This document shows positions 13,957-62,517 of a stretch of 64,000 bases of DNA, piece after piece. The number at the start of each line of letters is the position of its first letter. The first letter of the stretch is position 1. Source of the stretch: Candidatus Moanibacter sp. (GTDB lineage Bacteria > Verrucomicrobiota > Verrucomicrobiia > Opitutales > UBA2987); the NCBI GenBank assembly GCA_965215885.1, contig CBDCEW010000084.1, positions 1 to 64,000 on the forward strand, read 5' to 3'. The notes under the pieces were generated by a model. That model made no database searches. It was not told where the DNA came from and worked only from the letters and a program-made list of their open reading frames with translations. The translations under genes were made by a program, and so were the position numbers.

Positions 13957-14299
13957 TAGCTCTATCTTTAAACGATTCATTTAGCAATTTTGCATCCTCA
14001 AAAAAAATGCACTGAAATCGAGCAACTTCCGAAAATGGTACGATAAAGATCAAGCCAATTATACCGGCCCCTAGTCCTGGTGGCATATCCGCTCGGGCAT
14101 GCTGCCAGCATTGCATACTTGCGGGCAAACCTCAAGAGATGTGAGCTTTGGCGCAATCTCGAGCGAAGACAGGCTGTGTTTCTCCCCGCATTCGCTACCA
14201 ATTCGTCTCCATCTTCTTAACTCCGTTTGCGCCAAAGCCGTGAAATCTTCAGGCTAGTGAAGAACCCTGCCGAATTCCCGCTTGACTTTACCGTAGGGT

Positions 14300-14917
14300 G
14301 TGAAATCGACTGGTCGCATGCATCTGGTTTGCCTGGACCTGGAAGGCGTCCTCCTTCCCGAAATCTGGATCGCGGTCGCGGAAAAGACCGGTATTGCTGA
14401 ACTCAGGCGAACCACCCGCGATGAGCCCGATTATGACAGGTTGATGCGTTTCCGGCTGGATATTCTCTCTCGTCACAACATTGGAATCGACCTGATACAA
14501 GAGGCCATCGGCTCACTGGAGCCACTCCCGGGCGCGCTGGATTTTACCCGTTGGTTAATATCGGAAACTCGACTCGTTGTTCTCTCCGATACCTTTGCGG
14601 AATTTGCCGCTCCCCTCATGAAGCAGCTGGGTTATCCAACCCTCTTCTGCCACAATCTCGTGATCGATGATTGCGGCCGAATTGTTGACTACCGGCTGCG
14701 GCAACAGGATCAGAAACGAAATGCAGTCATCGCTTTTCAAAAGTTGAACTTCGAGGTCATCGCCGCGGGAGATTCTTACAACGACCTGAGCATGCTCCAA
14801 GCCGCTGACCATAGTATTCTCTTTTGTCCTCCGGACAGGATGCAGACGGAATATCCCGACTTTCCCGTCACAACCGACCACTCCGAGCTTCGCGCACGAA
14901 TCGAAGAGCTCATCTGA
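14300..14917 (+). CDS. thrH: Bifunctional phosphoserine phosphatase/homoserine phosphotransferase (HAD)
   Basis: CLDLEGVLLPEIW, TTRDEPDYD, LSDTF, AAGDSYND. Confidence 0.93.
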   Translation: MKSTGRMHLVCLDLEGVLLPEIWIAVAEKTGIAELRRTTRDEPDYDRLMRFRLDILSRHNIGIDLIQEAIGSLEPLPGALDFTRWLISETRLVVLSDTFAEFAAPLMKQLGYPTLFCHNLVIDDCGRIVDYRLRQQDQKRNAVIAFQKLNFEVIAAGDSYNDLSMLQAADHSILFCPPDRMQTEYPDFPVTTDHSELRARIEELI

Positions 14918-15111
14918 TACCCCGCCTCCTCTCGGGATACGGAACACTCTTGTTTGAGCGTTCCATAAATCTGATATTGAGATCTCTATTTACCGTTGCC
15001 GGCTTGTTTTATCCAAGCCGATAAAGGTATCGCGCGGCGGAACGGCGGCGGGCTGAAGGGAGTCAGCTTTTTATGAGTGTCGTTCAACCCGTTCGCTTAA
15101 CTTCCTCTTTC

Positions 15112-16500
15112 TTATTGAGAGGATTTTTTGCCATAAAATCCTATTCCGATAAGAAATGCTAAGGACAATAGTGAAATGATGATGCCAATAAGAAAAACCG
15201 GCCTGTCAACCTTGAATACCACATCATGTTCACCTGCAGGTAAAAGAAGCCCTCTGAATAGGTGGTTGACTGGATACACCCGGGTAGGTTTGCCATCCAG
15301 TTGACCTTTCCAAAGAGGATAGTATGCGTCAGTCAGAACTAACACTCCGGGGTTTTTCAACTTTGCCTTGATTTGACCCTCTGGGTTGAATATACTGTAA
15401 TCACCGGGAGTTCGTGTTTTGCAGGTTTTACAGGTAATTTCTGTTCGACCACAGCCATTTTAAAGGAATCAGGTATCTGAATACTTTTTCAAAGCGGCCT
15501 ATATAAAAAATGGCACCTGCAATCAGGCAAAAACCCGCCAATTGAGAGTTTTATCGAAGAGCTCGGCCTTTATATATGGGGCACTGAATAGGGACGCCTG
15601 GTCATAGGTTCGAGTAAGAATTGCAGGATCATTAGGAGGTAAAATCTGATAAACTCGCTCGCCCCAGGCACTGGATTGATTGACCAGGTTCAACTAAAAG
15701 TGAGAATTTCCGCCTTCAGGTGGATAGCCTAGTCCGAGAAGAAACAGTAAGAAAGTCAAAATACATCCCGTAGCAATCAAGCATTTCTTGAGTTCAGCCT
15801 TCGACCAATTTTGATTTAATGCAAATGCCGTCACCAAAGCAGAACCAAGCATGTAGAAGATAAGAAATCGCTGTAAGGAAAGATCTCCCAAAGATACCAA
15901 CGGCCCCAGTAGGATCCGGCTGTGCCATCACCAAAAAAGAACGGGCAGATTGCTGTTATGAGATTTTCTGGCGGCAACGAATAGCTACAGGCGAATTCAT
16001 AATCAACTTCTCTGGATCGGTGGGAATATCTCGTGAAATAGGCTGTTGGAATGGTTTGAATGGCGGCAATTACTAGGCTGAAGATGCTGGCCAATCCCAG
16101 TTTTCCCAGATTAACGACACTTTCATGTAGGTTTGTTTTCCGGATCAGAATCCAGGCAACCCAATAAAAGAAAAGAATCAGCCCAGTAAAATATGTGTAC
16201 TGCGGATAACCAGCCAGTAGCTGTATTCCCAATAGCCCACCCGTATAAATGGCATCCTTCCAGGAATTGTTTCGCAGAGATTTGTCCCAGAAAAGCAAAA
16301 TAACCGGAATCCAGGGACAGGTATTCACAAAACCTAAGTGGCCAGCATACAGGCGAATTGTAAACACCCCTGACAATGAGAAAACTGCAGCCCCGGTAAA
16401 TGGCCCAAACCTGTGCTACAGCAGGTGGCATCAGATCGGCAAGATAAGCATTAAAGTGGTAAATTTTAGAAAAACAGATTCGCCAAATCAGAAGAACCTT
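15112..16500 (-). pseudogene. Degraded YfhO-family (GT-C-like) membrane protein, several frameshifted fragments
   Basis: Fragments show QLLAGYPQY, SLPPENLIT..P.FFG and a C-terminal LVLTDAYYP.W....DG.......N..FRG....AGEH motif; lower GC than the flanks. Confidence 0.75.
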
Positions 16501-38209: not shown

Positions 38210-38418
38210 CGCCGCCGCAGGGTCCATCCGGGGCTGTCCGCTCCAGATTCCTGAATACGCATAAATCCGTGTAAGCCGAAGCGGTGAAACAAGTGGGCTA
38301 ATGATGTTGGAGCACCAAGAGAATACCGAGCTATACTTGCGTATCTAATCACAATTCTATTCCGTTATAAGAGTAAGACCAGACCTGGGAGCCTTATAGT
38401 TCCTGGAATCAAAAAAAT

Positions 38419-38453
38419 GAATCTGTCGGACCCTAAGTCTGACAGGTTCCTAA
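38419..38453. repeat. Internally deleted or degenerate copy of the GAATCTGTCGGA MITE
   Basis: GAATCTGTCGGACCCTAAGTCTGACAGGTTCCTAA, i.e. two fused TIRs. Confidence 0.65.
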
Positions 38454-41729: not shown

Positions 41730-41783
41730 TCACATCCTTCTATTTTGAAGGCAAGCACTTTGGGCGTTAGAGAAGCGGGCTAG

Positions 41784-43678
41784 CAGGGTAAAAGGATTCC
41801 AGGAAGCAACTAGCTGATAAGCAAGAAGATAAAAAAAGAGCTAAACAAACCCGAGGGAATCAGTCATGTTAAGATGGGATGAAAGACAAAAAATCTTACC
41901 AACTGAATCCTTCGATAGATCGTTTAACTCTGCGTCTGGTCCTGCCCGAAGAGCAGGAGCGATTCAATGATCTATTGAAACAACATCATTATTTACACAG
42001 TGCGGGCAGCGCAGGAGAGACCCTGCGCTATGTGGCGCAGATCGACGGGCAATGGATGGGCCTGCTCTTGTGGGGGGCCGCATCCTACCGGCTGAAGGAT
42101 CGAGACGAATGGATCGGGTGGGACGGGGCGCAACGGCATGCACGATTGAAACTGGTAGTACAGAACCGGCGTTTTCTGATTTTGCCCGGGGTGGATCTTG
42201 CAAATTTGGCCTCCAAGACGTTGGGTATGTGCCTGAGAGTCTTAGCCGATCACTGGCAGGAGGCTTTTGGCTATCGTCCCTTAGTAGCGGAAACGTTCGT
42301 GGACCCACAGATTCACCGGGGCACTTGCTACGAAGCGAGCGGGTGGACGCCCTTGGGCTTGAGCGCGGGATATGGCCGCCAACGCGAAGATTTCTATCAA
42401 CGCCATGAGCGTCCCAAGCAGATCTGGGTCAAACCCCTCAAGGCTAATGCCCTTGAGCTTTTGCGCGCTTCAGGGCCATTGCCCGCGGCACAGAGCCAGG
42501 CGCTCAATGAAACCGATAACTCCCATGCGGTCTGCCTCAAAGTGGAACAGATGAGCAGCCTGTGGGAACGCTTCAATCAGATAGAAGACTTCCGTCGTAA
42601 AGCGGGCCTTAGATATCGGCTCGCCACGGTCCTGAGCATGATTGTGCTCGGCACGATGTGCGGCAAACAGACCCTCAAGGGCATCGTGCGCCTGGCCCAT
42701 CATCTCAATCAAGCCCAATTGCGCGCCTTACGCTCCTGGAAAAACCCCAAAACAGGCCGCTATAAGGCCCCTTGCTATGATGTCTTCTATCGGGTCTTGC
42801 AAAACGTAAAGGCCGAGCTCTTCGATAAAACCCTCACCGAATTCATCTGCTTACAAGACGGCTGTTTGCCCCGCGATATTGCCGTCGACGGCAAGACCCT
42901 CAAAGGCACAAACACCGAAGAATCAAAGGCTCTGCACCTGGTGGCCGCAGTCGATCACCAAAGCGCTCAAACCTTAGCCCAAGTCGCTACCGCCGATAAA
43001 TCCAACGCGATCACCGCCGCCCAGACTCTCTTGCGAAAGATGCCCATTTTGGACGGCTCCACCTTCACCTTCGACGCCATGCATAATCAAAAAGAAACTG
43101 CCCACATCGTCGTCGAAGAACTCAGTGCTGACTATGTTATTCAAATTAAAGACAATCAGCCCAACATGCATCAATACGCTCAGAATCTCTTCAGCTCCAC
43201 CCCCTTTTTCTCCACCAAACCGTGGACAATGACCATGGGCGACTCGAAATACGTCAAATAGCAACCCATTCTCTAAGCGCTCCCTCTGCCGGCCTGCCCC
43301 ATGCCCGCCAGTTCGCCTGTGTGCAACGCACCTTCCATTATCCAAACAAAGCTGAACCTTCCTCTGAACGCTCTTACTACGTAAGCAGTCTCGATCCCGC
43401 CGATTTGAGCCCTCAACAGTTCCTCTCGAAAATTCGCAACCATTGGTCGATCGAAAATAAAAATCATTACCCCAAGGGATCGCTTCTTCGATGAAGATCG
43501 ATGTATGATCCGTAATCATAACGCAGCCAGAATTCTTGCTGCATGCAGGCAACTGGTTCTCAGCCTCAAGTCTTCCATGGGCGCTGAATCCACTCCCGCA
43601 CTCTGTGATGATTTCGTCTTTAACTTACATAAGGCCATCAATATCATCACCTAATGCTCCGAGAATCAAAATACCGTG
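41784..43678 (+). mobile_element. ISAs1-family element with a DUF4338 (DruA-like) N-terminal fusion
   Basis: Ends CAGGGTAAAAGGATTC / GAATCAAAATACCGTG (imperfect IR); no TSD visible. Confidence 0.85.
41879..43654 (+). pseudogene. DUF4338-ISAs1 transposase in three frames (41879..~43205, ~43205..~43472, ~43472..43654)
   Basis: HHYL, RD.WIGW, ETFVD and GTCY.A.GW (DUF4338); AVDGKTL, FDAMH, HGRLE.R, HWSIEN and FDED (ISAs1). Confidence 0.85.
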
Positions 43679-43915
43679 GGAGTGTTGGTTCTGACTGACG
43701 CATACTATCCTCTTTGGAAAGGTCAACTGGATGGCAAACCTACCCGGGTGTATCCAGTCAACCACCTATTCAGAGGGCTTCTTTTACCTGCAGGTGAACA
43801 TGATGTGGTATTCAAGGTTGACAGGCCGGTTTTTCTTATTGGCATCATCATTTCACTATTGTCCTTAGCATTTCTTATCGGAATAGGATTTTATGGCAAA
43901 AAATCCTCTCAATAA
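43679..43915 (+). pseudogene. YfhO C-terminal fragment, truncated by the ISAs1 end
   Basis: Same protein fragment as 15112..15348. Confidence 0.8.
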
Positions 43916-44109
43916 GAAAGCGGAAGTTAAGCGAACGGGTTGAACGACACTCATAAAAAGCTGACTCCCTTCAGCCCGCCGCCGTTCCGCCGCGCGATAC
44001 CTTTATCGGCTTGGATAAAACAAGCCGGCAACGGTAAATAGAGATCTCAATATCAGATTTATGGAACGCTCAAACAAGAGTGTTCCGTATCCCGAGAGGA
44101 GGCGGGGTA

Positions 44110-44727
44110 TCAGATGAGCTCTTCGATTCGTGCGCGAAGCTCGGAGTGGTCGGTTGTGACGGGAAAGTCGGGATATTCCGTCTGCATCCTGTCCGGAGGA
44201 CAAAAGAGAATACTATGGTCAGCGGCTTGGAGCATGCTCAGGTCGTTGTAAGAATCTCCCGCGGCGATGACCTCGAAGTTCAACTTTTGAAAAGCGATGA
44301 CTGCATTTCGTTTCTGATCCTGTTGCCGCAGCCGGTAGTCAACAATTCGGCCGCAATCATCGATCACGAGATTGTGGCAGAAGAGGGTTGGATAACCCAG
44401 CTGCTTCATGAGGGGAGCGGCAAATTCCGCAAAGGTATCGGAGAGAACAACGAGTCGAGTTTCCGATATTAACCAACGGGTAAAATCCAGCGCGCCCGGG
44501 AGTGGCTCCAGTGAGCCGATGACCTCTTGTATCAGGTCGATTCCAATGTTGTGACGAGAGAGAATATCCAGCCGGAAACGCATCAACCTGTCATAATCGG
44601 GCTCATCGCGGGTGGTTCGCCTGAGTTCAGCAATACCGGTCTTTTCCGCGACCGCGATCCAGATTTCGGGAAGGAGGACGCCTTCCAGGTCCAGGCAAAC
44701 CAGATGCATGCGACCAGTCGATTTCAC
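44110..44727 (-). CDS. thrH: Phosphoserine phosphatase/homoserine phosphotransferase, copy 2
   Basis: One aa difference from 14300..14917. Confidence 0.93.
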   Translation of the reverse strand: MKSTGRMHLVCLDLEGVLLPEIWIAVAEKTGIAELRRTTRDEPDYDRLMRFRLDILSRHNIGIDLIQEVIGSLEPLPGALDFTRWLISETRLVVLSDTFAEFAAPLMKQLGYPTLFCHNLVIDDCGRIVDYRLRQQDQKRNAVIAFQKLNFEVIAAGDSYNDLSMLQAADHSILFCPPDRMQTEYPDFPVTTDHSELRARIEELI

Positions 44728-45047
44728 ACCCTACGGTAAAGTCAAGCGGGAATTCGGCAGGGTTCTTCACTAGCCTGAAGATTTCACGGCTTTGGCGCAA
44801 ACGGAGTTAAGAAGATGGAGACGAATTGGTAGCGAATGCGGGGAGAAACACAGCCTGTCTTCGCTCGAGATTGCGCCAAAGCTCACATCTCTTGAGGTTT
44901 GCCCGCAAGTATGCAATGCTGGCAGCATGCCCGAGCGGATATGCCACCAGGACTAGGGGCCGGTATAATTGGCTTGATCTTTATCGTACCATTTTCGGAA
45001 GTTGCTCGATTTCAGTGCATTTTTTTTGAGGATGCAAAATTGAATAA

Positions 45048-45716
45048 ATGAATCGTCTTAAAAGCGCAGATTCCGTTATTTCTCTGCCCGAGTTTTGTAT
45101 CAACCTGGTGATAGCTTTAGTAATCAGCACTCTGGTTGGACAGCTCTACATACGATATGGACGCTCGCTATCAAACCGTCGTAGATTTGCCAAGTCATTC
45201 GTCCTGTTGTGTGTGGTTACGACGCTGATAATATCGGTAGTGAGTTCATCCCTGGCTCTCTCTCTGGGGCTTGTGGGCGCTCTTTCGATTGTCCGGTTCC
45301 GCGCGGCCATAAAAGACCCTGAAGAATTAGTCTACCTTTTTCTGATCATCGCGTTTGGCGTGGGACTGGGCGGCAACCGGCCGGTCCTTACTTTAGTCGG
45401 CTTTCTCGTCGCCGCTTTCGTGATTCGATTACAGGCGTTCGATGAAAAGGGTTCCGAGGCGACGCATAAGGTTTTGAGCATTTGCTCACCAAAATTACCG
45501 GCGAGTGATTTGAAACAGATACCTCAGCTACTACGACCTCATTGCACAGGCGTTTCTCTAAAACGGTTCGATGAAAACGAAGATGGTATGGAAGCCGTAT
45601 TCCTGATAGGCGTAGAAAGCTGCGATGCGCTTATGAGTTGCAAAGAGGCGTTGGAGAGTGCGTTCACAGAAATTAGAGTGTCCTTTTTTGATTCGGCGTT
45701 TCTTACAGAGGATTAG
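45048..45716 (+). CDS. DUF4956 family protein, copy 2 (different N-terminus because of a ~50-bp deletion)
   Basis: GLVGALSIVRFR motif. Confidence 0.88.
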   Translation: MNRLKSADSVISLPEFCINLVIALVISTLVGQLYIRYGRSLSNRRRFAKSFVLLCVVTTLIISVVSSSLALSLGLVGALSIVRFRAAIKDPEELVYLFLIIAFGVGLGGNRPVLTLVGFLVAAFVIRLQAFDEKGSEATHKVLSICSPKLPASDLKQIPQLLRPHCTGVSLKRFDENEDGMEAVFLIGVESCDALMSCKEALESAFTEIRVSFFDSAFLTED

Positions 45717-45758
45717 GACTGACGAAGAGGGAGATATAACGAACTGCCAGATGCCGTA

Positions 45759-48700
45759 ATGATGCGTCTCAATCCTGGATCAGCGCGGGTTTTGAAGTAC
45801 TCTTTGGTGGTGCTGTTGTTACCGGTTATTTTGATTACCCTGGCCCTCTTCTTCGACTATTTCGAATGGGTAGGTATTAAGGACTATCTGTCCCGGGATT
45901 TTGCCATCGAATCCGAGGATTTGGTTTTTTTTGGAATTGCGTTGCTGGTTTTCTCTTCCCCGTTCGTTGTCAGGCGGTGGGTTCGTTCGTTGAATCTATT
46001 TCTCTCAATGCGGTCTTCCAGACCCGAAGCTCTTTTGATTTCCAGGGATCAGGACAGGAAAGAGGGGAAAGGAACTTCACCAGCTTTACACAATGCACCG
46101 AATGCTATTTTCGCTTTGTTGCTTCTTTCGTTTGCCGTAGCTGCCTTCGCACCGGATTGGGCGAAGAGCGGGGTCTACCATACCATGGCTTCTGCACTCA
46201 ATCCGTTTGCGGAAGAATTCGTTACGCCGGCAGAACGTTCCATCAACGTAGTTCCCAGTCCGGATAGGCAAGGTGACAGTCTTGAGAAGACAAAGCTTCC
46301 TGTGATCGAGCTAACAATTCCCGAGTTGAGTATGCAGACATTGCTCAAGGCCATTCCGGAAATCGATCCGAACATCAACAAAGTCACAAACTTTTCCAGG
46401 TTTGCCGGTGTTGACGGCCCACAGTGGCCTTGGGTCCCCGCAGCGCTGACTTACGGGAGAAGAACCTATGACGTGGAAGTTCGTTTTCGTGGATGGAACA
46501 TGGATCACTTTATGGTTCAGAAGAAATCCTGGCGAGTAAAGTTTCCTAAAGACAACCTGTTTTACGGTCTCCGTGAGATTAATATCATAAATCAGCGGGA
46601 CCATACCGCTGTAATTGATGTTTTGCGGAGTGAATTATTGCGGGATTCCGGGTTACTGGTGCCAACGCAGTTCATGGTGCATCTCCGCATCAACGGCAGG
46701 TTTGCGGGTATTCAGACGTATCTTGAGCAGCCTGGAGAGCGCTTTTTTATCAAGCATAACCGAGCGGTGGGAGACTTTTACGGAGAGAAGAAACCGATTG
46801 ATTCGAAGAAGGGATTCTTAAATCCCGATAGTTGGCAGAAGTATTCGGCATGGAAGGATAGGCACTCATTTGAGAATTTGATGGAATTATACCGGGCAAT
46901 CTTCAGTAAGGGCAGACCCGGGTATAAGGAGAAGATCGAGGAGATTCTCGACATTGACCAGTATCTCACGTTTTGCGCGCATGCAGCCATTATGGCGCGC
47001 CTAAATCATTCCGGGCATAATATACGATGGATCTTTGATCCAGTTTCAGGGAAGTTTCAGATCGTTCCATGGTACCAGGGGCCGACCACGTATAGAAGTG
47101 GCAATGATTTCAGGCTGATAAAGAGGCTGGGTTGGAAAGTTTACCCACTTGGTCTTGCCATAAACGATGATATGGATGGCCTGTTTCATTTAGAGGATTT
47201 CCGCGAGAGGTATTATTCGAGGACCTGGGAACTCCTAACCTCCAGCCATGAACGAAGCCGAATCCTGGCGAAAATAGATGAACTTTATGAACTGGTTAAA
47301 GAGGATGTTTATGCCGACTCTCGTATACACTATAGTCCATACGTTCAGATGTATATCAGTAATGAGCAGTGGGAAGAAAGCATTTCGCGCCTGAAGGAGT
47401 TGGTGGTATTGCGAGATCAATATCTGAAGTCGGAGTTTAACCGCTGCGATTTAACCGTATCGGCAAAGCCATCCGGCCCAAGGGAATTCGTGGCCGAATC
47501 TCTGTTGGGTGCGTTGACTTTATTAGGTAGAATCGAACTAGCGAGCAGCGAACACATAGCCCCGTATGTTGAAACTCTGAGGATCGGAATTAGAGGATTA
47601 CAGTTAGAATCCATTGAGGACCTCATAGTTCTCGATTCGAAGAGTGGTCAGCAATTTAAGGCCATTAGCGAATCAAATGGGAATGGCGAAGAGATGCTGG
47701 TTTCGTTCAAAATTGCTCGGTCCTTCCCATCGCGCGTCTCCGGGATCCCCTACCAGGTGCCGCTTGAGAATGGGATCTTTGTGTCACCGTACCCAATGGA
47801 AACTGGGAAGCTTTATACCCCTCAGAAGACGATTCATACTCTCTCATTGGCGCTCAGAGGGAAAAGGGTCCTGCCGAGTACAGTTGCATGGGAGGTACTA
47901 TCAGTGGCAGCGAGAAATTCTGTCACCGGTGATCCGTTGCCCTCAGGAGTGTCTCCCGAGCAGGCACATTCCGGATCGAGAGTAGAGAGCGGTATGACTC
48001 GAACGATGGAATTGGTTTCACATCCTCGCACGCCGGAGGGCACTTTATCGGAACGGAAACCTGACGGCATTGGGAAGCTGCAGCCAGGCATTGCGCAGTT
48101 TCAAAAGACTGTGGTGTGGAGTCGCGGTAAAAGAGTGTTAGAGGAGGATTATGTGGTTGAAAAAGGGACGAAATTGATCGTCGAGGCGGGAGCGGTGATC
48201 GCGATCAGGGAGGGGCGTTCGTTATTGGTGAAAGGCTTGATCGAAGCGAAAGGTACCCCGCAAGAACCCATCCTGTTTACGTCCGAAAACCCAGGTGAAT
48301 ATTGGGGAGTTATTGCCGTGGCAACTCAAAGGCAAGGAATGAATGTATTTCAAAATTGTATCTTCGAGTACGGGAGTAATGCGACTTTGGGACGGGTAGA
48401 TTATACCGGGGTTGTCTCCCTTTATTTCTCCGAGGGGACGGTTGAGGAGTGTATCTTTCGCGACAACCGCGCGGACGATGCGATCAACTCGAAGTATGCG
48501 TCACCGACGATATCAAATTGCCGCTTCGTTCGCAATCTCGACGCTGTCGACATAGATTTTGGTGGAGGTATTGTTAAGAACTGCACCTTTCGCGACAGTC
48601 GCGACGATGCCATCGATTTGTCCTCATCTTGGGCGATTATAAGAGATAACCGGATCTATGGTGGCGGCGATAAAGGTATTTCGATCGGTGAGAAATCCTT

Positions 48701-49127
48701 TCCCAAAGTCTACAACAATTTGATTCTTGACTGTAATATTGGAATTGCCATCAAAGATCTTTCTGAACCCGTTATGATTAATAATACGGTGACTCGAAAT
48801 AAGTGGGGTTTGGCTCTTTATAGAAAGAAATTTGAATTTGGTCCGAGCAAAGGAGAGCTTATTAACTCTATCGTTTTTGGCAATCGAACCGACGTCATCA
48901 TTGAAAAGGGATCTCACATTTGGGCGTCTAACAGTCACATTGGACAGCGAGTGGCCGGTCCAGATAATTCGAGCGATCCGCCACTTTTTTTAGATCCCGG
49001 CAGGCGTGATTTTCGTCTGTCGGATGACTCCCCCTGCCTCGGAAAAGGAAACGGGTATTTGGTGAGTTACTATGGGGTAAAGGGGTCGCAGCGATTGTGG
49101 AATGTGGGATGTGAATACGATGATTAG
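45759..49127 (+). CDS. CotH kinase / beta-helix protein, copy 2
   Basis: Four aa differences from 7927..11295. Confidence 0.85.
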   Translation: MMRLNPGSARVLKYSLVVLLLPVILITLALFFDYFEWVGIKDYLSRDFAIESEDLVFFGIALLVFSSPFVVRRWVRSLNLFLSMRSSRPEALLISRDQDRKEGKGTSPALHNAPNAIFALLLLSFAVAAFAPDWAKSGVYHTMASALNPFAEEFVTPAERSINVVPSPDRQGDSLEKTKLPVIELTIPELSMQTLLKAIPEIDPNINKVTNFSRFAGVDGPQWPWVPAALTYGRRTYDVEVRFRGWNMDHFMVQKKSWRVKFPKDNLFYGLREINIINQRDHTAVIDVLRSELLRDSGLLVPTQFMVHLRINGRFAGIQTYLEQPGERFFIKHNRAVGDFYGEKKPIDSKKGFLNPDSWQKYSAWKDRHSFENLMELYRAIFSKGRPGYKEKIEEILDIDQYLTFCAHAAIMARLNHSGHNIRWIFDPVSGKFQIVPWYQGPTTYRSGNDFRLIKRLGWKVYPLGLAINDDMDGLFHLEDFRERYYSRTWELLTSSHERSRILAKIDELYELVKEDVYADSRIHYSPYVQMYISNEQWEESISRLKELVVLRDQYLKSEFNRCDLTVSAKPSGPREFVAESLLGALTLLGRIELASSEHIAPYVETLRIGIRGLQLESIEDLIVLDSKSGQQFKAISESNGNGEEMLVSFKIARSFPSRVSGIPYQVPLENGIFVSPYPMETGKLYTPQKTIHTLSLALRGKRVLPSTVAWEVLSVAARNSVTGDPLPSGVSPEQAHSGSRVESGMTRTMELVSHPRTPEGTLSERKPDGIGKLQPGIAQFQKTVVWSRGKRVLEEDYVVEKGTKLIVEAGAVIAIREGRSLLVKGLIEAKGTPQEPILFTSENPGEYWGVIAVATQRQGMNVFQNCIFEYGSNATLGRVDYTGVVSLYFSEGTVEECIFRDNRADDAINSKYASPTISNCRFVRNLDAVDIDFGGGIVKNCTFRDSRDDAIDLSSSWAIIRDNRIYGGGDKGISIGEKSFPKVYNNLILDCNIGIAIKDLSEPVMINNTVTRNKWGLALYRKKFEFGPSKGELINSIVFGNRTDVIIEKGSHIWASNSHIGQRVAGPDNSSDPPLFLDPGRRDFRLSDDSPCLGKGNGYLVSYYGVKGSQRLWNVGCEYDD

Positions 49128-49818
49128 GTCGCCTGAGGAAGGGTTGAGCTTTCGAGAGGAGCGGAAGTTTGTCATACCCCGTGGCGACTGTCGGGAGATT
49201 GAGGGTATGATCAGAATCTCGCCCGCGATGTTTTCTGAGAACTTTCCACCCCGATGGGTAAATAGCATCTACCTAGATACTTATGATTTTCTGAATCATA
49301 CCGAACACCTTGCAGGAGTCTGCGATCGAGCCAAACATCGAGTTCGGTGGTACGGTAGTCTTCGAGGAAAAATCACGAGTCCGGTTCTTGAGGAAAAAAT
49401 GCGCTTCAGCATTTTAGGAGCGAAGAGAAGGTACCGATTGCCGGAGTTTAACTTTGATGGGCGTATATCTTCTTCTATCCTCCACTCGAAACTTAGGGAA
49501 GGGGAGGTTGATCCTCGTATTTTGGAAGTTTGCCTTAAGAAGATCTTAACCATTGTTACTCGCTACCGGCGAAAGTATTTTGTATCGCGTGATGGAAGAT
49601 ATCGAGTAACGATCGACTGGGGGCTCGAATATTACGGAGTTCAAGCAGGTGGGTGCGGTTTTCGAAGAGGTAGAAAAGAATCCACCGTTATTGTTGAGCT
49701 TAAATATGATCCGGAATTCAGTGACGACGTGCATCGAGTAGTTTCTAAGATGCCGTTTCGAATTGTCAGGAACTCAAAATATATGAGAGGCGTCAGCTCG
49801 ATTTATGGCATCGAATGA
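49120..49818 (+). CDS. VTC (polyphosphate polymerase) domain protein, intact
   Basis: REERKF, VNSIYLD, R.KHRVRWYG, RVTID, VELKY, SKY..G. Confidence 0.88.
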   Translation: MIRSPEEGLSFREERKFVIPRGDCREIEGMIRISPAMFSENFPPRWVNSIYLDTYDFLNHTEHLAGVCDRAKHRVRWYGSLRGKITSPVLEEKMRFSILGAKRRYRLPEFNFDGRISSSILHSKLREGEVDPRILEVCLKKILTIVTRYRRKYFVSRDGRYRVTIDWGLEYYGVQAGGCGFRRGRKESTVIVELKYDPEFSDDVHRVVSKMPFRIVRNSKYMRGVSSIYGIE

Positions 49819-49877
49819 ATTGGCGTTATGTTCCTAAACAATGCAATTCACAGCCACGTCTTCACCGGTGGAGAAAA

Positions 49878-50564
49878 TCAGGCTGAAGGTGGAGGTTGCC
49901 TTCCCTGGTTGCCTTCGATGATTTGAGAAATTTGCTCCACGACCTCTACAAGGGGTATTTTCGAATTGTTGATTCGTATTGCTCCCTGGGGGCAGTGGAG
50001 AGGAGCCAGATTTCGCGTGGAGTCGGTTTTGTCGCGCTCTTCGATGGGATCCCGAAGGCCTTCTTTTGAACGACGGCGGGCTCTGGTCTCTTGATCGGCT
50101 TCCAGGTAGAATTTGAAGTCCGCATCGGGAAAGACGACCGATCCGATGTCCCGGCCTTCCATAACAATGCCGTGGAATTCGTGATTCCGGGCGAATGAGG
50201 CGAGGCTGCGCTGATAATCAAGCAAGAACTGCCTTACCTGGGGAACGGCCGAGAATTGAGAAACCTCCCGGTTTACCTGGGGGCTCCTCAACTCTTGCGA
50301 GGTGGGCGAAAATCCGGATAAGCGAATACGAGCGCTTCGACTCCGGACGACAGTATCGATCTGTATTTTGTTTAAATCTGATCCCAACTTACCAGAGTTT
50401 TCAGAACTCAGACCTCTATTAAGGCAGAAGTAGGTGACGGCTCGATAGTGGGAACCGGTATCGACGTAGAGCAATTTGAAGCGTTCGGCGATGAGGCGCG
50501 CAGTGGAAGACTTACCGGATGCGGCCCCTCCATCAATAGCGATGATTTTGAATTCTTCCGGCAT
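49878..50564 (-). CDS. cmk: Cytidylate kinase, copy 2
   Basis: As 4579..5268. Confidence 0.95.
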   Translation of the reverse strand: MPEEFKIIAIDGGAASGKSSTARLIAERFKLLYVDTGSHYRAVTYFCLNRGLSSENSGKLGSDLNKIQIDTVVRSRSARIRLSGFSPTSQELRSPQVNREVSQFSAVPQVRQFLLDYQRSLASFARNHEFHGIVMEGRDIGSVVFPDADFKFYLEADQETRARRRSKEGLRDPIEERDKTDSTRNLAPLHCPQGAIRINNSKIPLVEVVEQISQIIEGNQGRQPPPSA

Positions 50565-50567
50565 TGT

Positions 50568-51926
50568 TCACGATTCGGTGTGTAGTGAGCCCAGGATGTC
50601 AAAGAATCGTGGGAAAGTCTTTGCTACGCAGTCCGGGTTCTTAATGGATAGCCAAGGATTATCCTGGTCGAGGATATTGGCACAGCCGAGGATTGCGAAA
50701 CTCATGGCTATCCGATGATCGTTGTATGTCTCGATAGTGACTCCCCGGGCTGCTCTCTCCCGAAGAGCGGAAAGGTCGGGAGTGATCAGAAGATCCTCCA
50801 CTCCCTCTTCGATTCCCTGTCCGAGCCGCCGTAATTCGTGAGCGACCGATGCGAGGCGATCAGACTCTTGCTTACGCGTGTGGCCAATTCCTCGAATATG
50901 GACCCTGCTTTCGAATAGCGGGGCAACTGCTGCCAGGGTAAGGAAAGTGTCAGAGATGGGATTGAAGTCCAAATCGAGCAGGTCTCGACCTGAGGGCAAT
51001 CTCCTGCCCCCTTCAAATCGAAAAGAAATCTCGGAAGAATCGCTCTCCACGCAAAGTCTTGTGTTTTCCCGAAGCAAACTCAGAAATTGAGAATCTCCCT
51101 GGAGAGGAACTTCACTTAAGGCGCGTATGCTGATGGTCCCCCCCGCCACGAGGGGAAGAATGGCAAAGTAGCTGGCGGCTGTCGCATCCGGCTCAATTTC
51201 ATATACTGCGCCCTCCAAATTGTAATTGCAGGGGGCCTCAATCTCAAAACCGCCATTTTCCCCGGTTACATATCTCTGGAGTCCGAATTGCTCCATCATC
51301 CGATGAGTCATTTCAACAAAGGGCTTTGATACCGTTTCGCCTCGAAGTGAAATCTGTAAGAGGTCTTTTGCGTGGGGCGCCGCCATCAGCAAAGCGGAGA
51401 GAAACTGACTGCTGGCACTTGCGTTCACTTCAATCTTACCCCCGGAGAGACCGTGAGTGTGGAGGGTGAACGGAAAGTGCCCTGTTTGGCCTTCGTATTG
51501 GATCTTTGCGCCGAGAGCTATGAGGGCGTCGAGGAGCCCTTTCATGGGACGATTTCGCATAATGTTTTCGCCATCGAGAAAGTAAGAGCCACCTTCCCGG
51601 AGGCAGAGAAAGGCGGTCAGAAACCTCGCAGCAGTACCCGCGTTTCCGATAAAGATACGCGCGTCGGGGTTCGGAATTTTACCACCTTGACCTCTAATCC
51701 GCACTGAGTTTTCGGTGTGTTGGGCTATGACTTCATAGCCCAATGCGATGAGAGCCCGCACCATAATCTCAGTATCTTCGCTAAAGAGGGCGTTGCGCAG
51801 GGTAACTTCATGATCGCAGAGTGCCGCCATTATAAGCGCCCGATTTGTGATACTCTTCGAACCGGGTAATCCTACCCTTCCCGCAACGGGTCGAGTGAAG
51901 GGAAGTATGGGAAGAGGGTCTTTCAT
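50568..51926 (-). CDS. aroA: EPSP synthase, copy 2
   Basis: Same protein as 3217..4575. Confidence 0.97.
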   Translation of the reverse strand: MKDPLPILPFTRPVAGRVGLPGSKSITNRALIMAALCDHEVTLRNALFSEDTEIMVRALIALGYEVIAQHTENSVRIRGQGGKIPNPDARIFIGNAGTAARFLTAFLCLREGGSYFLDGENIMRNRPMKGLLDALIALGAKIQYEGQTGHFPFTLHTHGLSGGKIEVNASASSQFLSALLMAAPHAKDLLQISLRGETVSKPFVEMTHRMMEQFGLQRYVTGENGGFEIEAPCNYNLEGAVYEIEPDATAASYFAILPLVAGGTISIRALSEVPLQGDSQFLSLLRENTRLCVESDSSEISFRFEGGRRLPSGRDLLDLDFNPISDTFLTLAAVAPLFESRVHIRGIGHTRKQESDRLASVAHELRRLGQGIEEGVEDLLITPDLSALRERAARGVTIETYNDHRIAMSFAILGCANILDQDNPWLSIKNPDCVAKTFPRFFDILGSLHTES

Positions 51927-51932
51927 GCCAAG

Positions 51933-52032
51933 CTAGGAATCTGTCGGACCTAGAATTCTTAACACCCCCATATCGACGAATTCATGGTGACAGATCGACA
52001 TTCCGACGCAGATGAGACCGACAGATTCCTAG
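51933..52032. repeat. ~100-bp MITE-like element (duplicate of 3111..3210)
   Basis: CTAGGAATCTGTCGG TIRs. Confidence 0.85.
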
Positions 52033-52895
52033 CTGCCCTCCAATTTTAGCCGAAGGCGGTCGCGGAAAGCTTTGCCGTGTTCGAGGACATTGAGAATCTC
52101 AAAGACCTGACCATTTGTGATGGCGGTCTTCATGGCTTGGAGTTCATCCTCAAACCCACCGATGGCACGGACGATTTCTTCGCGATTCTGTTCGATTATG
52201 CATTTCCAGAGACTGGGGCTTGCGGCCGCAACACGCGTCGAGTCGCGCAGTCCGTCTCCCGCAAAATTGCGCCAGTTGGAGTCTTTGGAGCCAAGGTAGG
52301 TACAGAGAACGCTGGCCAAAACATGGGGTAGATGGCTGATATTGGCTACGATTTCGTCGTGCTGCTCCGGCGTCACCGTTACGACTTCCATATCGAGCGC
52401 TTTCCAGAACAGCAGTAGCGATTCAACCGCCTTTTCATCGGTGTCAACTAGAGGTGTTACGAAACAGGCCTTCTTACGATAGAGCTCAGCATCCGCATAC
52501 TGCATACCGCTCTTCTCGGAGCCGGCCATGGGATGCGACCCGACGAATGCCGCATTGCCTGGAATCAGAACATGGCAATGGCGTGTAATCAGGCTCTTAG
52601 TGCTACCGACATCGGTCACGATTGCCCCCGGTTTGACACAACCGGCGATGCGGGCCACTATCCCTTGAACGGCTTCAACCGGTGTGCATACAACAACGAT
52701 ATCGGATCCTCGAACTGCCTCTTCAAGGGTCTCGGTTACAGAATCGCACCAGGGTTGTGATGCGCATTTGAGGCGTGTTTCGGGGCGGCGCGCCCATAGA
52801 ATGGTACGCTGAGAAATTTGGCGTGCTTTAACAGCCTGTGCCAGAGAGGCGCCTAGAAGGCCCGGTGCGATGATAGTGATCTGCTCAAACATCAA
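52029..52895 (-). CDS. tyrA: Prephenate/arogenate dehydrogenase, copy 2
   Basis: Same protein as 2248..3114. Confidence 0.93.
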   Translation of the reverse strand: MMFEQITIIAPGLLGASLAQAVKARQISQRTILWARRPETRLKCASQPWCDSVTETLEEAVRGSDIVVVCTPVEAVQGIVARIAGCVKPGAIVTDVGSTKSLITRHCHVLIPGNAAFVGSHPMAGSEKSGMQYADAELYRKKACFVTPLVDTDEKAVESLLLFWKALDMEVVTVTPEQHDEIVANISHLPHVLASVLCTYLGSKDSNWRNFAGDGLRDSTRVAAASPSLWKCIIEQNREEIVRAIGGFEDELQAMKTAITNGQVFEILNVLEHGKAFRDRLRLKLEGS

Positions 52896-54705
52896 TTTTG
52901 CTTTGATATTTCAACCGGTAAAACAGGAATGCGATAATGTAAATCAGCAGAGCGAGTTGTGCCAGGAACTGAAGCCCGAAGAGCATCGATAGATACTCGA
53001 GGCAGCCGCCCAAAACGGACCCCAGAAGGTTTGATCCGAGTGCTGAGGTGGGGTTAGCCGAACGGGAAAGGAGGATCGGGACGATAATACCGGCAAAGAA
53101 AATGGGAATAGCGATGAGAAGTCCACCGAGAATGCTTCGAGGGAGCATCTCAAAATGATTGAGTTCGCTGACCGGGAAATAGCATACCAGAACAACGGCG
53201 AAGAAGAGGCCTAAGAACCAGTATGTGGGATCTCTCAGACTGAAATGCATGACAACCAGATTGGCCAGCAGAACCATCGTCAGGATGGCAGCAAATACGG
53301 CGGAGTTTACAATCCATGTGGATCCGAAAAGAAGGGATAAGCTGGTGATGCCACGCGTCTCCAAAAGGAGAAATGAAGTGCCCATAAGAAAGAGGGTAGA
53401 GTCAAATTCCCGGACTACGTTTTTCTTCCCAAACGCGAATACGACCAATCCCGTTCCCAGGAGCAGGATGAAGAGCAGTACCAGGAGGTAGCCCCAAGGG
53501 AAGACTCCGGGACGTATGTAAAGAAAGGGCCAATCATCACTCGTGGTTCGAACCTGGGGTATCTCGCTCCCCGCCTCTATCGTCTGAAAGGTGTTCAGTC
53601 GGGCGTAATTGAGCTTGGCACTCTCTTTAGGGACGATGAAGGTTACACTGAAATGTTCTCTCTCGTGAAAAAGTGGTAGTGGCCGTATGCCGGTCGCCTT
53701 CGCGATTGTCGTATAAAGCCGCAAGAAAAACCACTCACCGGCATAAACGCTTATAGTAATGCTGAGATGCCCCCTATCAGAAACCAGCTCCCAGGCGGAT
53801 CGAATGCTGTCCTCGGTGTAGACGTAATTGTCAAGTCGCAACGAGGACATGGATGAAAACATGGCATGCGAGTCGAGGAAACCGAAACTGACGACGTCAA
53901 AGGGTTCACCCTGGTATTGTTCAAAGAAAGGTCTGGCATCGTTAACCACCGGAATTACCTCCGAATTTTGGTAAGGTTGTTCAGGGTGTAGCGATTGTCC
54001 CAATGCAATGATCTCTCCGTCGATATCTACAGAATAGATCATGGCGTAATCGTTTCGAATTGCCGCCTGAACATCGTTTCCGGTGCCGGCTCCCACAATT
54101 AATGCCCTTCTGCGCGCATCATTTATAAAAAAGGGTAAGTCGTAGACGCGTCTTAATCCGAATGCCAAGAGGTCTTTGCTTTGAGAGAGCTCCTCCCTGG
54201 ATAACGGGAGCTCGGAGAAATCATGCATGTATTGATGGAAATCCCGGTTTACCCTGATCGTGATTGCGACAGGATTGTCATGCTTAACATCGATGCGATT
54301 GTAAGGTGAGTATATTGCCCCCTGAATGGAAAAAGCGCTCAGAATTAGAATGCCGAGAAAGGCTGCAATGCTGTACCACTTTCGCGACAGCCAGCAGAAC
54401 GGTAATCCCCCAATCATGAACCAGATTGGAGGGTTCGCGGAGAACGAGGTTGCGATCGTGAATGCGATTATGCCCAGGAGCGAGCCGAGCAGATCTGCCG
54501 AGTAGGCACGAAGAGTGGGAATTCTACCAAAGAGATACCCAACAGGAGTTCCAGCAAATATAAAAACACTGACAATGAAGCAGAAGAGGCAGAGAAAAAT
54601 TGCGATGTTGAGACTGAAGGTAGAGAGAGACCAAGTGTTCAGCTCCCCATAAGAAAACTGAGGTAGTCCGTCAAGGGATTTTTTGAGTTTTTTCTCATGT
54701 TGTGT

Positions 54706-56016
54706 TTACAAGGCGTTGGCATTTGCTTGCTGAAGTCTTTTCCACACCGGTGAACCGGTGCGTTGGAGCGATTGGAGATACTTTTGCTCATCGTAGCGTT
54801 CGCTATTTTGCCAACAGCGAAACAGAATGCGGGTCCACTTGAGAGCGAGGGCACGAAGAATGGTTTGGCGGGGTTTGCCCTGTTCTTTTTTGATCTGGTA
54901 AAAGGCCTTTGCCCAGGCACAGTTTCGGATCGAATGTTCGGCAAATTCAACGAAACTTTGCCGCACGAAGGTAGGAGCCGCCCACCGCCAGTTGACCATT
55001 CGTTTCGGTTGTCCGGTTCTTTTGTCCTGCCCGCTGTTGATCGTGACCGGAGCGGATCCATTCCACTGGGTCATGTTCTGGGCCGTTTCGAAGTGCGAAC
55101 GATCGGTCCCGAACGCGCACAGCAACCGGGGACTCATGACCTCGCCGGCTCCGGGAATGCCACTGAACACGGCTGCATCGGGATGGCTTCTGAATAGCTC
55201 CCTGATACGCTTCTCATACGCTTTGATCTGCGGGCACAGGGTCAAAAGCTGTCCGGCCAACGTCTGTGCTTTTCTGCTGGATGCTTCAATGATGGCTGCA
55301 TCTTCGGTCAAGGCTCGTGCGTTACCGATCAATTCGAGACGCTCCTGGATTTTGGCGTCACTGCGACAGTTGTGCTTATAGAAGAACTTTCGCAAGACAC
55401 CCTCCGATGCTCTGTGCAGCTTCTTGAGGGTCGGCCAACGCAATATAAAGTGCAGGCACAGGCCACTGCCTAGATCATCGAACAATTTCAAGACCAAAGG
55501 GTTATATTGCTTCAGACAACTGCCCAACTGCTGTTCGAGGCTGGTAGCCTGATCGACGAATCCACGGCGGTCCTCGCACAACAGGTTCAGCTCCCGTGTT
55601 TGGGCCGTGTCAGGTATGAAACATTTGGTAAAAAGCTCGGGATGTTTGAGGAAAAACTCCGCGTGTATTTGCGCATCGACCGGGTCGCTCTTGGCCCCTG
55701 ATGGATACAGCGCCCGGCGATAATCCTTCGCCCTGGCCGCATGCACTGGATAGATATCGACAAACTCCAAGCCCATCAGAAAGTTGATCAACCCTCCTCG
55801 CTTCTGGTCCACCACCATGGCCATGCGCTTGCCCACGCTGGCATACTTTTCTCTCATCTCTACGGCAAATTCGTGCAAGCTGACCGCATCCTGCGCCACC
55901 TGTCGATGGGTCCCTTTTCCCGTTTCGCTCTCTATGATCCACAGATCGTTTTTCTGATCCGCCCAATCAATTCCTATCACCACACTATATCGATTTGTTT
56001 TTTCCCTTTTCTGCAT
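54706..56016 (-). CDS. IS110-family recombinase (DEDD RuvC-like domain plus Tnp domain)
   Basis: GIDWAD, KSDPVDA, GIPGAG, GSAP.T.NSG, ALALKW.RILFRCW; RBS AAAGGA. Confidence 0.95.
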   Translation of the reverse strand: MQKREKTNRYSVVIGIDWADQKNDLWIIESETGKGTHRQVAQDAVSLHEFAVEMREKYASVGKRMAMVVDQKRGGLINFLMGLEFVDIYPVHAARAKDYRRALYPSGAKSDPVDAQIHAEFFLKHPELFTKCFIPDTAQTRELNLLCEDRRGFVDQATSLEQQLGSCLKQYNPLVLKLFDDLGSGLCLHFILRWPTLKKLHRASEGVLRKFFYKHNCRSDAKIQERLELIGNARALTEDAAIIEASSRKAQTLAGQLLTLCPQIKAYEKRIRELFRSHPDAAVFSGIPGAGEVMSPRLLCAFGTDRSHFETAQNMTQWNGSAPVTINSGQDKRTGQPKRMVNWRWAAPTFVRQSFVEFAEHSIRNCAWAKAFYQIKKEQGKPRQTILRALALKWTRILFRCWQNSERYDEQKYLQSLQRTGSPVWKRLQQANANAL

Positions 56017-56044
56017 CCCTTTGTTCCTTTAGTTTGTCTTTTTG

Positions 56045-56343
56045 CTTTTTTCAAAGGCACTGGATGTCCAGGCGAAGTCCTTATAGTTGGATCCTGTTAT
56101 GAGGATGTAAACTGAGTGTTCGTTTTCGGTCATCCAGGCAGGCCGTCCACTCGAAATTCTGTCGGAAGTCCTCTTCGGACTGATTCCTAAGTTCGTAGTG
56201 GACGGCTGCCTTTGAATATTTTCACCCTTAGCCAAACAAACTCTTTGACCCATCGCCAACCACTGATCGGCCAAGTTATTCACAAAGGGGCCTCGCCGAG
56301 TTTTTCCTGCGGCTCCACTCGGTCCCTTGGATGAATAACCTGG
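56045..56343 (-). ncRNA. Putative IS110 bridge RNA (5' hairpin, target-binding loop, donor-binding loop)
   Basis: Nested stems with two internal loops whose strands match the MITE TIR and the IS junction (see findings). Confidence 0.85.
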
Positions 56344-56347
56344 AGCT

Positions 56348-56353
56348 ACTATA
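56348..56353 (-). promoter_or_regulatory. -10 box TATAGT of a circle-junction promoter (the -35 TTGACG is at 54669..54674)
   Basis: Joining the right end to the left end gives TTGACG-N17-TATAGT. Confidence 0.85.
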
Positions 56354-56813
56354 AGTAAACTGAGGTGTCTGGAAACTTGAGGTGCACCAGTCCAAATTTC
56401 TGGGAAAATGCAAAAGGGATGCCGACCAAGAATAGAGAAGGGAGAGTAAGATGCACGAGCCCGCTAAATCGTTTTCCCAACGCGACTCCAATCCCCATTC
56501 CCAGAAAAGCGCCGATTAATACAATGTTGTTGAAGTAGGCGAATATCCTGATCTGGGTTGTGCTCCAGCGGATTATTGCCAGCTCAAGGGCTAATATTCC
56601 GAAGGTCGCCAATCCAATTTTGAAAGCGACTGGTCCGCCTTTCTCAGCCCACCCCGTCTCCTTTAGCAGGTTCAAGCGCATTTTGAGAGCGAGAGTTCTC
56701 TTCTCGTAGAAAAACCTTTACCCTTCATCAGCTGTAGGAGTAAACTGGGAGTGAATCTTCTCTAGGTGCCTGTCGGCGAAGTGAGAAAGTCTCTTAGGAT
56801 CGTTTGTAGATTC

Positions 56814-61055: not shown

Positions 61056-62345
61056 ATGGAAAGAGCAGGTGTGAATCATAGAAGGATACAATTTGTCTGT
61101 ATGGCGCTGTTGGTTGGCAGCCTCCTGTTTTATGTCACTCTGTATCCTCCCGCCTGGAGGCTTTTCATTGGCCCATATTACATGGGGTATCCATTTCTGG
61201 ATCTGCATGGCGTCCTCTCCTATGCCGAAGGGTATAATCGGGGTTGGAACTTAAGGACATTGGAGTCCAACCCCTTGGACTTTTTGAAAAGGGGAAATAC
61301 GGCATATCCCAATCTGTGGTATTCTCTCCCCGGAGCGTTAGGATTTACGCGTCAACATGAAATCCCTTTGGCTCTTATGATTGTCGTGGGATTTCTCTCC
61401 TTCCTCCTCTTTTTTCTCTACCCCCGTTCGTGGAAGGATGTCTTAATCGGTTTTCTTGTTATTTGCTCACCGGGAGCACTCCTGGCAATGGAGCGTGGCA
61501 ATAACGATCTCGTGATTTTTTTGTTGCTCGCCATCGTCCCGCTCTGCTTCGAGTGGCGGTCGCGTGTGGGATTTCCATTGGCGTGGACAGTGCTGCTGTT
61601 TGCCACAGCCCTCAAGTACTATCCGATTACCGGATATATTCTCTTTGTGAGGAATATAAAGCAGCTGCGCCTACTGTTTTGGTATGCATTTGCGGCCTTC
61701 TTCGCGGTTTCGGCCTATTTCGCAGTCAATGTGGAGGATTTTCTTCAGGTTCCCCGGAATCTTCGGGCCTACACAGATCCCATCGACGTTTTCACTTTCG
61801 GAGCAAAGGGCTTCTTTTATTTTATCAGTTATGACAGAGAATACCTTGGAGTCTCCGTCCTTCTCGGCTTTCTGGCTATCTTGGGTGGGGCCGCCTTTTT
61901 CGCGAAAAAGACCGATTCTTCACTTCTACCGAGCTCTCAATGGCGTGAGAATTATTTCCTCTTGGGTGTCGCTATCTCGGCTTTCGCATTTTTTTTGATC
62001 AGCAGTTACGATTATCGGACCATTTTTCTTCTCTTTACGTTCCCTTACCTCCTTGAATTGGGAAAAGACTCAGGGGAAGCCAATCGTCTCAGGATAGCGG
62101 CGCGGGTTCTCACAGCGCTTCTGATTATCGTGATGTGGATCGAAACGGTCTACTTTTTTGTGGTCTTAGACCCGGTTCAACGCCAGTGGCATGCGGTAGG
62201 GGTCGGGTACGTGGTACTCATCAAGCACGGTTTGGCGTGGATTGTGATGGCAATGCTGGTAGGGTTGGCTTTCCTGCTTCTGAAGCCGAGTGTAGCGAGA
62301 CTTTGGGCATCTCTTCCACCATTGATAAAAGAGAAATCGGGATAG
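61056..62345 (+). CDS. Membrane glycosyltransferase-like protein (GT87/DUF2029-like)
   Basis: PF.DL, YP..W, ERGNNDL, LKYYP, YDYR.IFL. Confidence 0.7.
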   Translation: MERAGVNHRRIQFVCMALLVGSLLFYVTLYPPAWRLFIGPYYMGYPFLDLHGVLSYAEGYNRGWNLRTLESNPLDFLKRGNTAYPNLWYSLPGALGFTRQHEIPLALMIVVGFLSFLLFFLYPRSWKDVLIGFLVICSPGALLAMERGNNDLVIFLLLAIVPLCFEWRSRVGFPLAWTVLLFATALKYYPITGYILFVRNIKQLRLLFWYAFAAFFAVSAYFAVNVEDFLQVPRNLRAYTDPIDVFTFGAKGFFYFISYDREYLGVSVLLGFLAILGGAAFFAKKTDSSLLPSSQWRENYFLLGVAISAFAFFLISSYDYRTIFLLFTFPYLLELGKDSGEANRLRIAARVLTALLIIVMWIETVYFFVVLDPVQRQWHAVGVGYVVLIKHGLAWIVMAMLVGLAFLLLKPSVARLWASLPPLIKEKSG

Positions 62346-62440
62346 GAATCTGTCGGCCGAATCCGCGTCGGAATGTCGATCTGTCACCATAAAATCCGCT
62401 TCCCGGTGATGTTGGGAATTCTAAGTCCGACAGATTCCTA
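62343..62440. repeat. ~100-bp MITE-like element
   Basis: TAGGAATCTGTCGG...CCGACAGATTCCTA, with the internal GCGTCGGAATGTCGATCTGTCACCAT shared with 3111..3210. Confidence 0.88.
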
Positions 62441-62517
62441 ACCTGTGAATTTCACCGAGATTTCCGGATCAATGGGAGGCAGCGCACGAAACTCATCGTG
62501 AGTAAAAGGAAGGTAGC

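Follow-up and report, generated by a model that had tools for sequence, protein, structure and literature searches.

What does the IS110-group element in this stretch of DNA aim at, and what chose the site in which it sits? The window, as we call the whole stretch of 64,000 nucleotides analysed here, holds one full copy of the element inside a host gene, whereas the original prediction had proposed that the target loop of its bridge RNA is programmed against the terminal repeats of a resident MITE family. The genome holding the window is termed G000, and a relative of the same family but another genus G006.

The ends of the element were set by nine other full copies in G000 (99.8-99.9% identity). 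By a PF02371 search the window element is the sole IS110 type of this genome, with ten full copies, one truncated copy at the start of the window and one internal fragment. The names of proteins homologous to those encoded nearby suggest that the host belongs to the Verrucomicrobiota. The encoded protein contains the domains PF01548 (E 1.2e-17) and, at its C-terminus, PF02371 (E 2.3e-9), and a profile search matched it to IS621 (8wt6) and ISCro4 (9t56). D17, D111, D114 and S328 were invariant across 22 homologues, most of which have E at the position of D70, and the SG motif at S328 aligns with that of IS621. The score against NF033542 (119.2 bits, E 2.1e-34) lies below the curated cut-off of 140, a shortfall that may be read as divergence of the recombinase. 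The non-coding ends measure 339 bp on the left and 54 bp on the right; with guides upstream of the gene and so short a right end, membership of the IS1111 group was ruled out. Judged by its sequence, the window element is an IS621-type, IS110-group bridge recombinase element. At position 33 of the left end (window 56323) the window copy departs from the base common to the other nine; X1, X4 and X5 contigs carry that common base, so the difference may be an assembly error. In these last two runs, X4 and X5, assembly gave a contig of 1716 nt that extends beyond the element by seven letters on the left and five on the right, as expected if the copies there have identical flanks, and an X10 contig bears the flank of the C96 copy.

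The left end folds as a two-loop structure (fold z = -6.7), for which an Rfam search gave no match, and the target loop of the predicted bridge RNA reads AGGAAT-CT-GTCGG (Table 1). When the element ends were joined in silico, TTGACG and TATAGT were separated by 17 bases, so that a circle junction would be predicted to form a promoter with a -35/-10 spacing of 17 bp. The joint of right end to left end was found in none of the contigs of the runs searched, contigs only being covered, and a contig from an RNA library that covers 56067-56300 is an assembled contig and cannot show expression. At the right junction of the window copy (54641..54674, minus strand) 17 bp separate the -35 box from a weak -10 (TATGGG), together a possible hybrid promoter that would point into the downstream tyrA/aroA-like genes.

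Table 1 Coordinates of the element, its predicted RNA, the host gene and the repeat units in the window
Feature	Position	Strand	Support or remark
IS110-group element, 1704 bp, CT at both ends	54652..56355	-	nine other full copies, empty allele
Second, truncated element copy at the start of the contig	1..491	+	host right flank as in the full copy; inverted duplication
Bridge recombinase, 436 aa (D17, D70, D111, D114; S328)	54706..56016	-	domain and profile matches
Predicted bridge RNA, target-binding loop then donor-binding loop	56060..56210	-	in the 339-bp left non-coding end
Left target guide TTAGGAATC	56182..56190	-	fits left flank in 9/9 copies
Right target guide TCCGACAG, complement of CT-GTCGGA	56159..56166	-	guide-target matching
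Left donor guide CTCAGTTTAC	56107..56116	-	mismatch to the element's own end at position 7; full match to the host site in the window
Right donor guide ACTATAAG, complement of CT-TATAGT; then handshake base G	56080..56087	-	
-35 box TTGACG near the right end	54669..54674	-	predicted partner TATAGT of the left end (56348-56353)
Interrupted host gene, 5' part, codons 1-110	56356..56681	-	P0001 99% identical, intact
Interrupted host gene, 3' part, codons 111-698	52885..54651	-	2-nt loss near 54621
Left half of donor-like host site, 9/9 to left donor guide	56356..56364	-	native host codons (P0001)
Right half of donor-like host site, TATGG, 4/5 to right donor	54647..54651	-	
Free target repeat unit, TA-flanked, holds perfect 16-mer 62426..62441	62343..62440	.	
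Free target repeat unit, CTAG on both sides, between tyrA-like and aroA-like genes	51934..52031	.	
Copy of the 51934..52031 unit in the duplicate arm, free	3112..3209	.	
Short degenerate hairpin of the target repeat family, about 31-bp class	38416..38452	.	

The targets named by the original prediction were found in the window. The perfect 16-mer is present on the minus strand as claimed, arms lie at the MITE ends (3112/3195, 51934/52017 and 62343/62426), the degenerate form announced near 38419..38453 corresponds to a degenerate short pair at 38416/38438, and all listed sites are free of IS110. The MITEs given as 3111..3210 and 51933..52032 are both present, but they represent one locus seen twice and not two, since 1..5862 is an inverted duplicate of 49268..55142. 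The left TAG of the third unit is the stop codon of the ORF at 61056..62345. A search of the window for arms with up to three mismatches gave 12 matches against 2.0 expected, a number reached in none of 100 shuffles; the match at 56175 is the guide loop. Over the whole of G000, the perfect 16-mer stands free at 39 places (0.003 expected) and AGGAATCTGTCGG at 256 (0.2 expected).

The flanks of the other full copies agree with these sites: in all nine a duplicated CT is preceded by AGGAAT and followed by GTCGG. The original prediction for such flanks, TAGGAA-TC and TC-TGTCGGA, passes this test, but its core TC is wrong. From the nine copies alone the core could be TC or CT, because a T precedes it in target and donor alike; CT is settled by the window copy together with the homologues. 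A perfect 16-mer is no requirement, being present at just one of the nine occupied sites (C88). Position 1 is T in six of the nine and C in three, a C there being expected to pair with the guide by wobble, and GTCGG is followed by A in seven. The copies in C59 and C25 have a common right flank of 200 nt and those in C59 and C104:326019 have similar left flanks, so the independent events may number seven or eight. At position 6, 97% of the free sites in G000 have A (256 vs 7), and a test for a preference there has no power (P = 0.79).

This position is informative in G006, where 23 copies of an element with 79% protein identity were found. Its left guide, TTAGGAGGC, has GG in place of AT, and every copy with an intact left end (20/20) lies in CTAGGAG, the next base being T in 17, G in two and C in one; the left end is missing in three, and the right flank is GTCGG in 21 of the 23. 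Free sites in G006 comprise 591 AGGAAT, 237 AGGAGT and 89 other AGGAG, giving a preference with P = 4e-11 (about 2e-9 by hand, with all AGGAG sites counted). Indifference to position 6 is therefore excluded in this genome, all 20 copies lying in AGGAG despite the commoner AGGAAT. In G006 the handshake base is A and fits the T at position 7; the G of G000 makes a G-T wobble there. Between the two elements, a two-base change of the guide thus goes with a move from one variant of a single repeat family to the other. One IS110 copy in G006 (L032, G006:C1:1020400-1023500) is interrupted by about 560 bp with a 153-aa gene of the IS200-type Y1_Tnp kind.

Covariation of guides and targets was assessed on 69 loci, 42 of which passed the automatic end finder and 28 of which were non-redundant and kept; these homologues span 35-100% identity, their guides were anchored on a conserved ACGAA motif, and 10,000 shuffles were made. 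The right guides matched their own targets at 137 of 140 positions (shuffled 52, maximum 80) and the left guides at 160 of 196 (shuffled 91, maximum 116), and pairing of the handshake base with target position 7 held in 26 of the 28 homologues (shuffled 11, maximum 19). Among 24 homologues, compensatory changes were seen at 14 of 17 target-loop pairs; RNAalifold did not recover the donor stem from the alignment of these 24. The predicted guides thus covary with the targets across the family, and the proposal that a bridge RNA directs the element to the repeat ends stands on the nine other copies, on the joint change of guide and target in G006 and on this family-wide covariation. The T at position 7 common to target and donor occurs in 4 of 28 homologues. 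Distant homologues retain the CT-TATAG donor but aim at other sequences, and the exact arm pattern, IS1182-type as set out below, occurred in none of 81 distant loci. Four distant homologues from Verrucomicrobiae (L123, L139, L143 and L059) are aimed at TCGTC-CT-CG low-complexity repeats. Close homologues of the element were limited to one clear carrier, G006, and one marginal match among 40 relatives; one 42% locus in metagenome contigs and one weak viral match were the others. A third close element (P0124, 70% identity, 49 members) is known from protein alone.

Choice of target might also need the hairpin of the repeat, besides or instead of RNA pairing, as in ISPpu10, which according to the accessible text of 10.64898/2026.03.19.712850 uses a target stem-loop. 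A partner arm does lie downstream of 6 of 9 occupied sites in G000 and 18 of 23 in G006, but it is absent from the other three and five. Occupied sites fold with -10.5 to -19.7 kcal/mol, like free sites (median -16.5), so a hairpin requirement was not supported; moreover, a single guided base separates two equally paired variants in G006. We consider a role of the hairpin quite unlikely and retain selection of the repeat ends by the predicted guides.

The window copy does not follow this pattern. Its flanks fit the target guides at only 4 of 12 positions and the donor guides at 13 of 15 (9/9 left, 4/6 right), the guide lengths for the latter score having been chosen after the window site was known. 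Among 743,373 CT sites scored, no other exceeded 12 save the copy's own left junction (15), and in a 7+5 frame the window site reached 11 of 12 and the next best 10. The interrupted gene encodes a 698-aa membrane protein, homologues of which have a spermidine-synthase-like or SAM-methyltransferase domain. The intact allele P0001 is uninterrupted through codons 110 and 111, a WG motif near the insertion site is given by 96 of 120 homologues, and the window query found the gene in none of eight other genomes of the family. The empty allele is seen in X4 and X5 contigs, which come from two other studies and are exactly 1702 bases shorter at the site; X5 contigs have AG at the 2-nt loss near 54621. 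Position 7 is the host's A at the left junction and the element's T at the right. Since it stays with its own side, the crossover is placed in the five bases that hold the core and not in the longer left homology. Among the 33 copies of the two genomes this is the one donor-like insertion, a single event that was likely guided by the donor loop, either by two donor loops (DBL-DBL) or by a left half-match.

Recombination at microhomology, an off-target of the target loop or an assembly error could have produced the window copy with no part for the donor loop. The element's right end and the host site have 10 bp in common, the assembly is IS-rich with 5.5% contamination and an inverted duplication, and X1, which may itself be the source sample, covers the left junction with 30 letters, one below the bridging rule, and so does not bridge it in the formal sense. 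On the other hand, since position 7 keeps to its own side at both junctions, the crossover falls outside the 10-bp stretch; the poor fit of the target guides speaks against an off-target; and a 7.1-kb X1 contig spans the right junction, with the empty allele exact. Such origins are in our estimate improbable, and guidance by the donor loop is preferred. It would be a further step, tentative and on balance doubtful, to regard the donor loop as a second aiming device in nature through which IS110 elements regularly enter genes. In that case some host sequences would outrank the true donor, the left guide mismatching the element's own end at position 7 in both G000 and G006. Copies with two donor-like junctions, in line with a host promoter, could then be easily excised sources, and together with the two-base retargeting this would provide a natural setting in which to probe the rules of bridge-recombinase specificity.

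What the repeat is follows from comparison with IS1182 elements. One complete element of 1.6 kb on viral contigs (L082/L089) combines these ends with an IS1182-family transposase (L089 against NF033551: 367 bits, cut-off 270). Seven plasmid loci with related IS1182-like transposases, one of them annotated ISAzo2-like, have matching or near-matching ends after CTAG, and an IS1182 C-terminal remnant in G006 continues into a right end built like a major paired-arm repeat class of G000. Because these three agree, the arms are identified as IS1182-type ends. Like the ISAzo2-like members of that family they have the form (C)TAG-[C/G]AG[C/T]CTGTCGG; unlike the full elements, G000 holds only short non-coding derivatives. 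A sister arm type, TAGCAGCCTGTCGG, has 39 exact copies in G000 and equals the ends of ISAzo2-like IS1182 elements; it is used by none of the nine on-target copies.

G000 contains 150 paired units of 25-130 bp, with size classes near 31, 84 and 92-93, and about a third of the arms (90/255) are unpaired. TA stands on both sides of 53 of the 150 paired units and a 4-nt direct repeat flanks 13 of them; no empty site was found. The empty site of an IS1182 copy was likewise sought, to size the duplication, and the search returned the record itself alone. Median pair identity was 0.49 among 103 units of 90-96 bp, with diverged interiors. The target repeat family is old and mosaic, and certain paired units may be bare right ends and not two-ended MITEs. 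NF033551 had no match above cut-off in G000 (90% complete) or G006, and searches with PF05598, NF033551 and tblastn gave partial matches only, without arms. Eight arm pairs 0.5-4 kb apart in G000 were considered for an autonomous partner and rejected, as they enclose host genes, IS110 or a 1.9-kb IS. The repeat gave no match to plasmids, and across 400 genomes of the phylum its arm was multi-copy only in G194 (14) and G280 (10). The label MITE is therefore largely apt for units that are short, non-coding and multicopy with IS1182-type ends, with the reservation that they are old, mosaic and without a full transposase.

That the repeat is instead of the REP/REPIN type, spread by a RAYT, is highly improbable and already largely refuted: its copies are hundreds, diverged, intergenic, hairpin-forming and mosaic, G000 has 29 Y1_Tnp matches, and IS621, ISPpu9 and ISPa11 are known to target REPs (available parts of PMC12288879, PMC11208160 and PMC11187229), yet none of the 20 Y1_Tnp loci examined (of the 29 matches) is flanked by arms on both sides, three having one arm within 1.5 kb, and the arms equal IS1182 ends, one of them on the IS1182 remnant in G006. 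Many Y1_Tnp (RAYT-like) proteins of 330-440 aa occur with none of the studied arms nearby, in C36, C44, C59, C88, C89, C103, C104 and G006.

The IS1182-type arms avoid genes. Only 19 of 256 lie inside ORFs of at least 200 aa, where 74% of random positions fall. In 54 of the 164 arms with a TAG, this triplet serves as a stop codon (background 1.6%). The original prediction had described the element as a parasite of a parasite that uses the repeat as a safe harbour. Since the arms avoid genes, this is supported as a pattern, and the mostly intergenic, IS1182-type arms fit it; the window copy breaks the rule. A benefit of such a harbour to fitness would be a plausible corollary.

Taken together, the IS1182-derived repeat ends that hold the nine other copies were very probably selected by the predicted bridge RNA, and the site of the window copy was likely chosen by the donor loop. 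This account starts from features observed directly, namely the element ends, the CT core, the flanks of all copies, the guide-target matches, the covariation and the empty allele, and takes the circle, the junction promoter and the target-loop pairing from IS621. By analogy, the element would excise as a circle, the joined ends of which would form a promoter, and the target loop would pair with TAGGAAT-CT-GTCGG. This site takes in the TA flank together with 12 bases at the start of the inverted arm; by recombining at CT, the element would come to lie within the arm and break it. Such insertions would mostly fall in intergenic sequence, in some cases directly after a stop codon. For the window copy, the circle was likely paired with host sequence by two donor loops or through a donor half-match; to the left donor guide this host sequence is a better fit than the end of the element itself.

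Each step has a known counterpart, and the mechanism is already known. As in the IS110-group bridge recombinases IS621 and ISCro4 (IS622; PMC11208160 and PMC11208158, insofar as accessible; PDB 8wt6, 9t56), a long left non-coding end, a two-loop RNA, a CT core and a 7+2+5 target are present, together with a handshake base, a junction promoter (predicted here) and a repeated intergenic target. Unlike these, the window element belongs to a distant 436-aa clade (profile E 1.8e-13 to IS621), has Asp at the second catalytic position, targets an IS1182-type end and not a REP, and shares T at position 7 between target and donor. Entry into the terminal inverted repeat of another mobile element has a further parallel. 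Partridge and Hall are said to have reported in 2003 that IS4321 and IS5075 insert at a fixed base in the Tn21 terminal inverted repeat. Those elements are of the IS1111 group with the RNA downstream, in contrast to the IS110-group element described here, which targets non-autonomous remnants.

Donor-donor or half-match insertion at donor-like sites is described in the accessible text of 10.1101/2025.05.14.653916 and 10.64898/2026.08.31.748434; in the laboratory set of the latter, as far as available, 4 of 168 sites were LD+RD and 21 LD-only. The readable part of a natural survey (10.64898/2026.08.14.744561) gives one-sided donor matches in expanded elements and complete donor pairs as essentially absent. 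Unlike the laboratory DBL-DBL events, the window case is natural, with an empty allele and a broken host gene. Natural reprogramming, in which related elements have changed guides and targets, is described for ISEc11/ISXne4 in the part of PMC11187229 that was accessible; the pair of G000 and G006 differs from it in shifting between variants of one repeat family by two bases. The literature on these mechanisms that was consulted, in part, includes PMC13626964 and describes donor-donor recombination both in vitro and in editing. No IS110 aimed at IS1182 ends was found in the published literature, and bioRxiv supplements may list such sites; the term IS1182 is absent from the readable part of the PMC11208160 supplements. 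Three features appear to be undescribed: the target family, the pair of elements retargeted by two bases, and a near-complete donor-like insertion that is natural and has a known empty allele.

These genomes present a readable natural system with one recombinase clade, two guides two bases apart and 29 on-target insertions with both flanks, to which hundreds of free sites per variant and one likely donor-guided off-target with an empty allele are added. The rules at positions 6 and 7, wobble tolerance, handshake pairing and off-targeting by the donor loop are testable with natural sequences, and such rules are practical questions for genome editing with bridge recombinases. Here an RNA-guided element lives on the remains of an IS family of which no full copy was found in the genome.

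Other features of the window concern its assembly and further mobile elements. An inverted duplication of about 11.5 kb, 99.6-99.8% identical, relates 1..15348 to 43679..55142 and may be either real or two co-assembled strains. It starts inside IS110 and ends at an ISAs1-type element end, with two 1.9-kb IS copies in one arm only; as the far boundary is an ISAs1-type end, IS110 was not supported as its cause. The two copies (5859..7780 and 12033..13959) are of a 1.92-kb IS whose best NCBIfam match is ISNCY_1 (257 bits, below cut-off) and which occurs in near-identical copies at more than 80 places in G000. The ISAs1-type element at 41783..43678 is multi-copy, and in its 460-aa ORF a DDE part is fused to an N-terminal Druantia DruA domain (PF14236, 1e-25). 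Finally, 37083..41783 matches the start of contig C50 at 99.7%, likewise ending at the ISAs1-type element.
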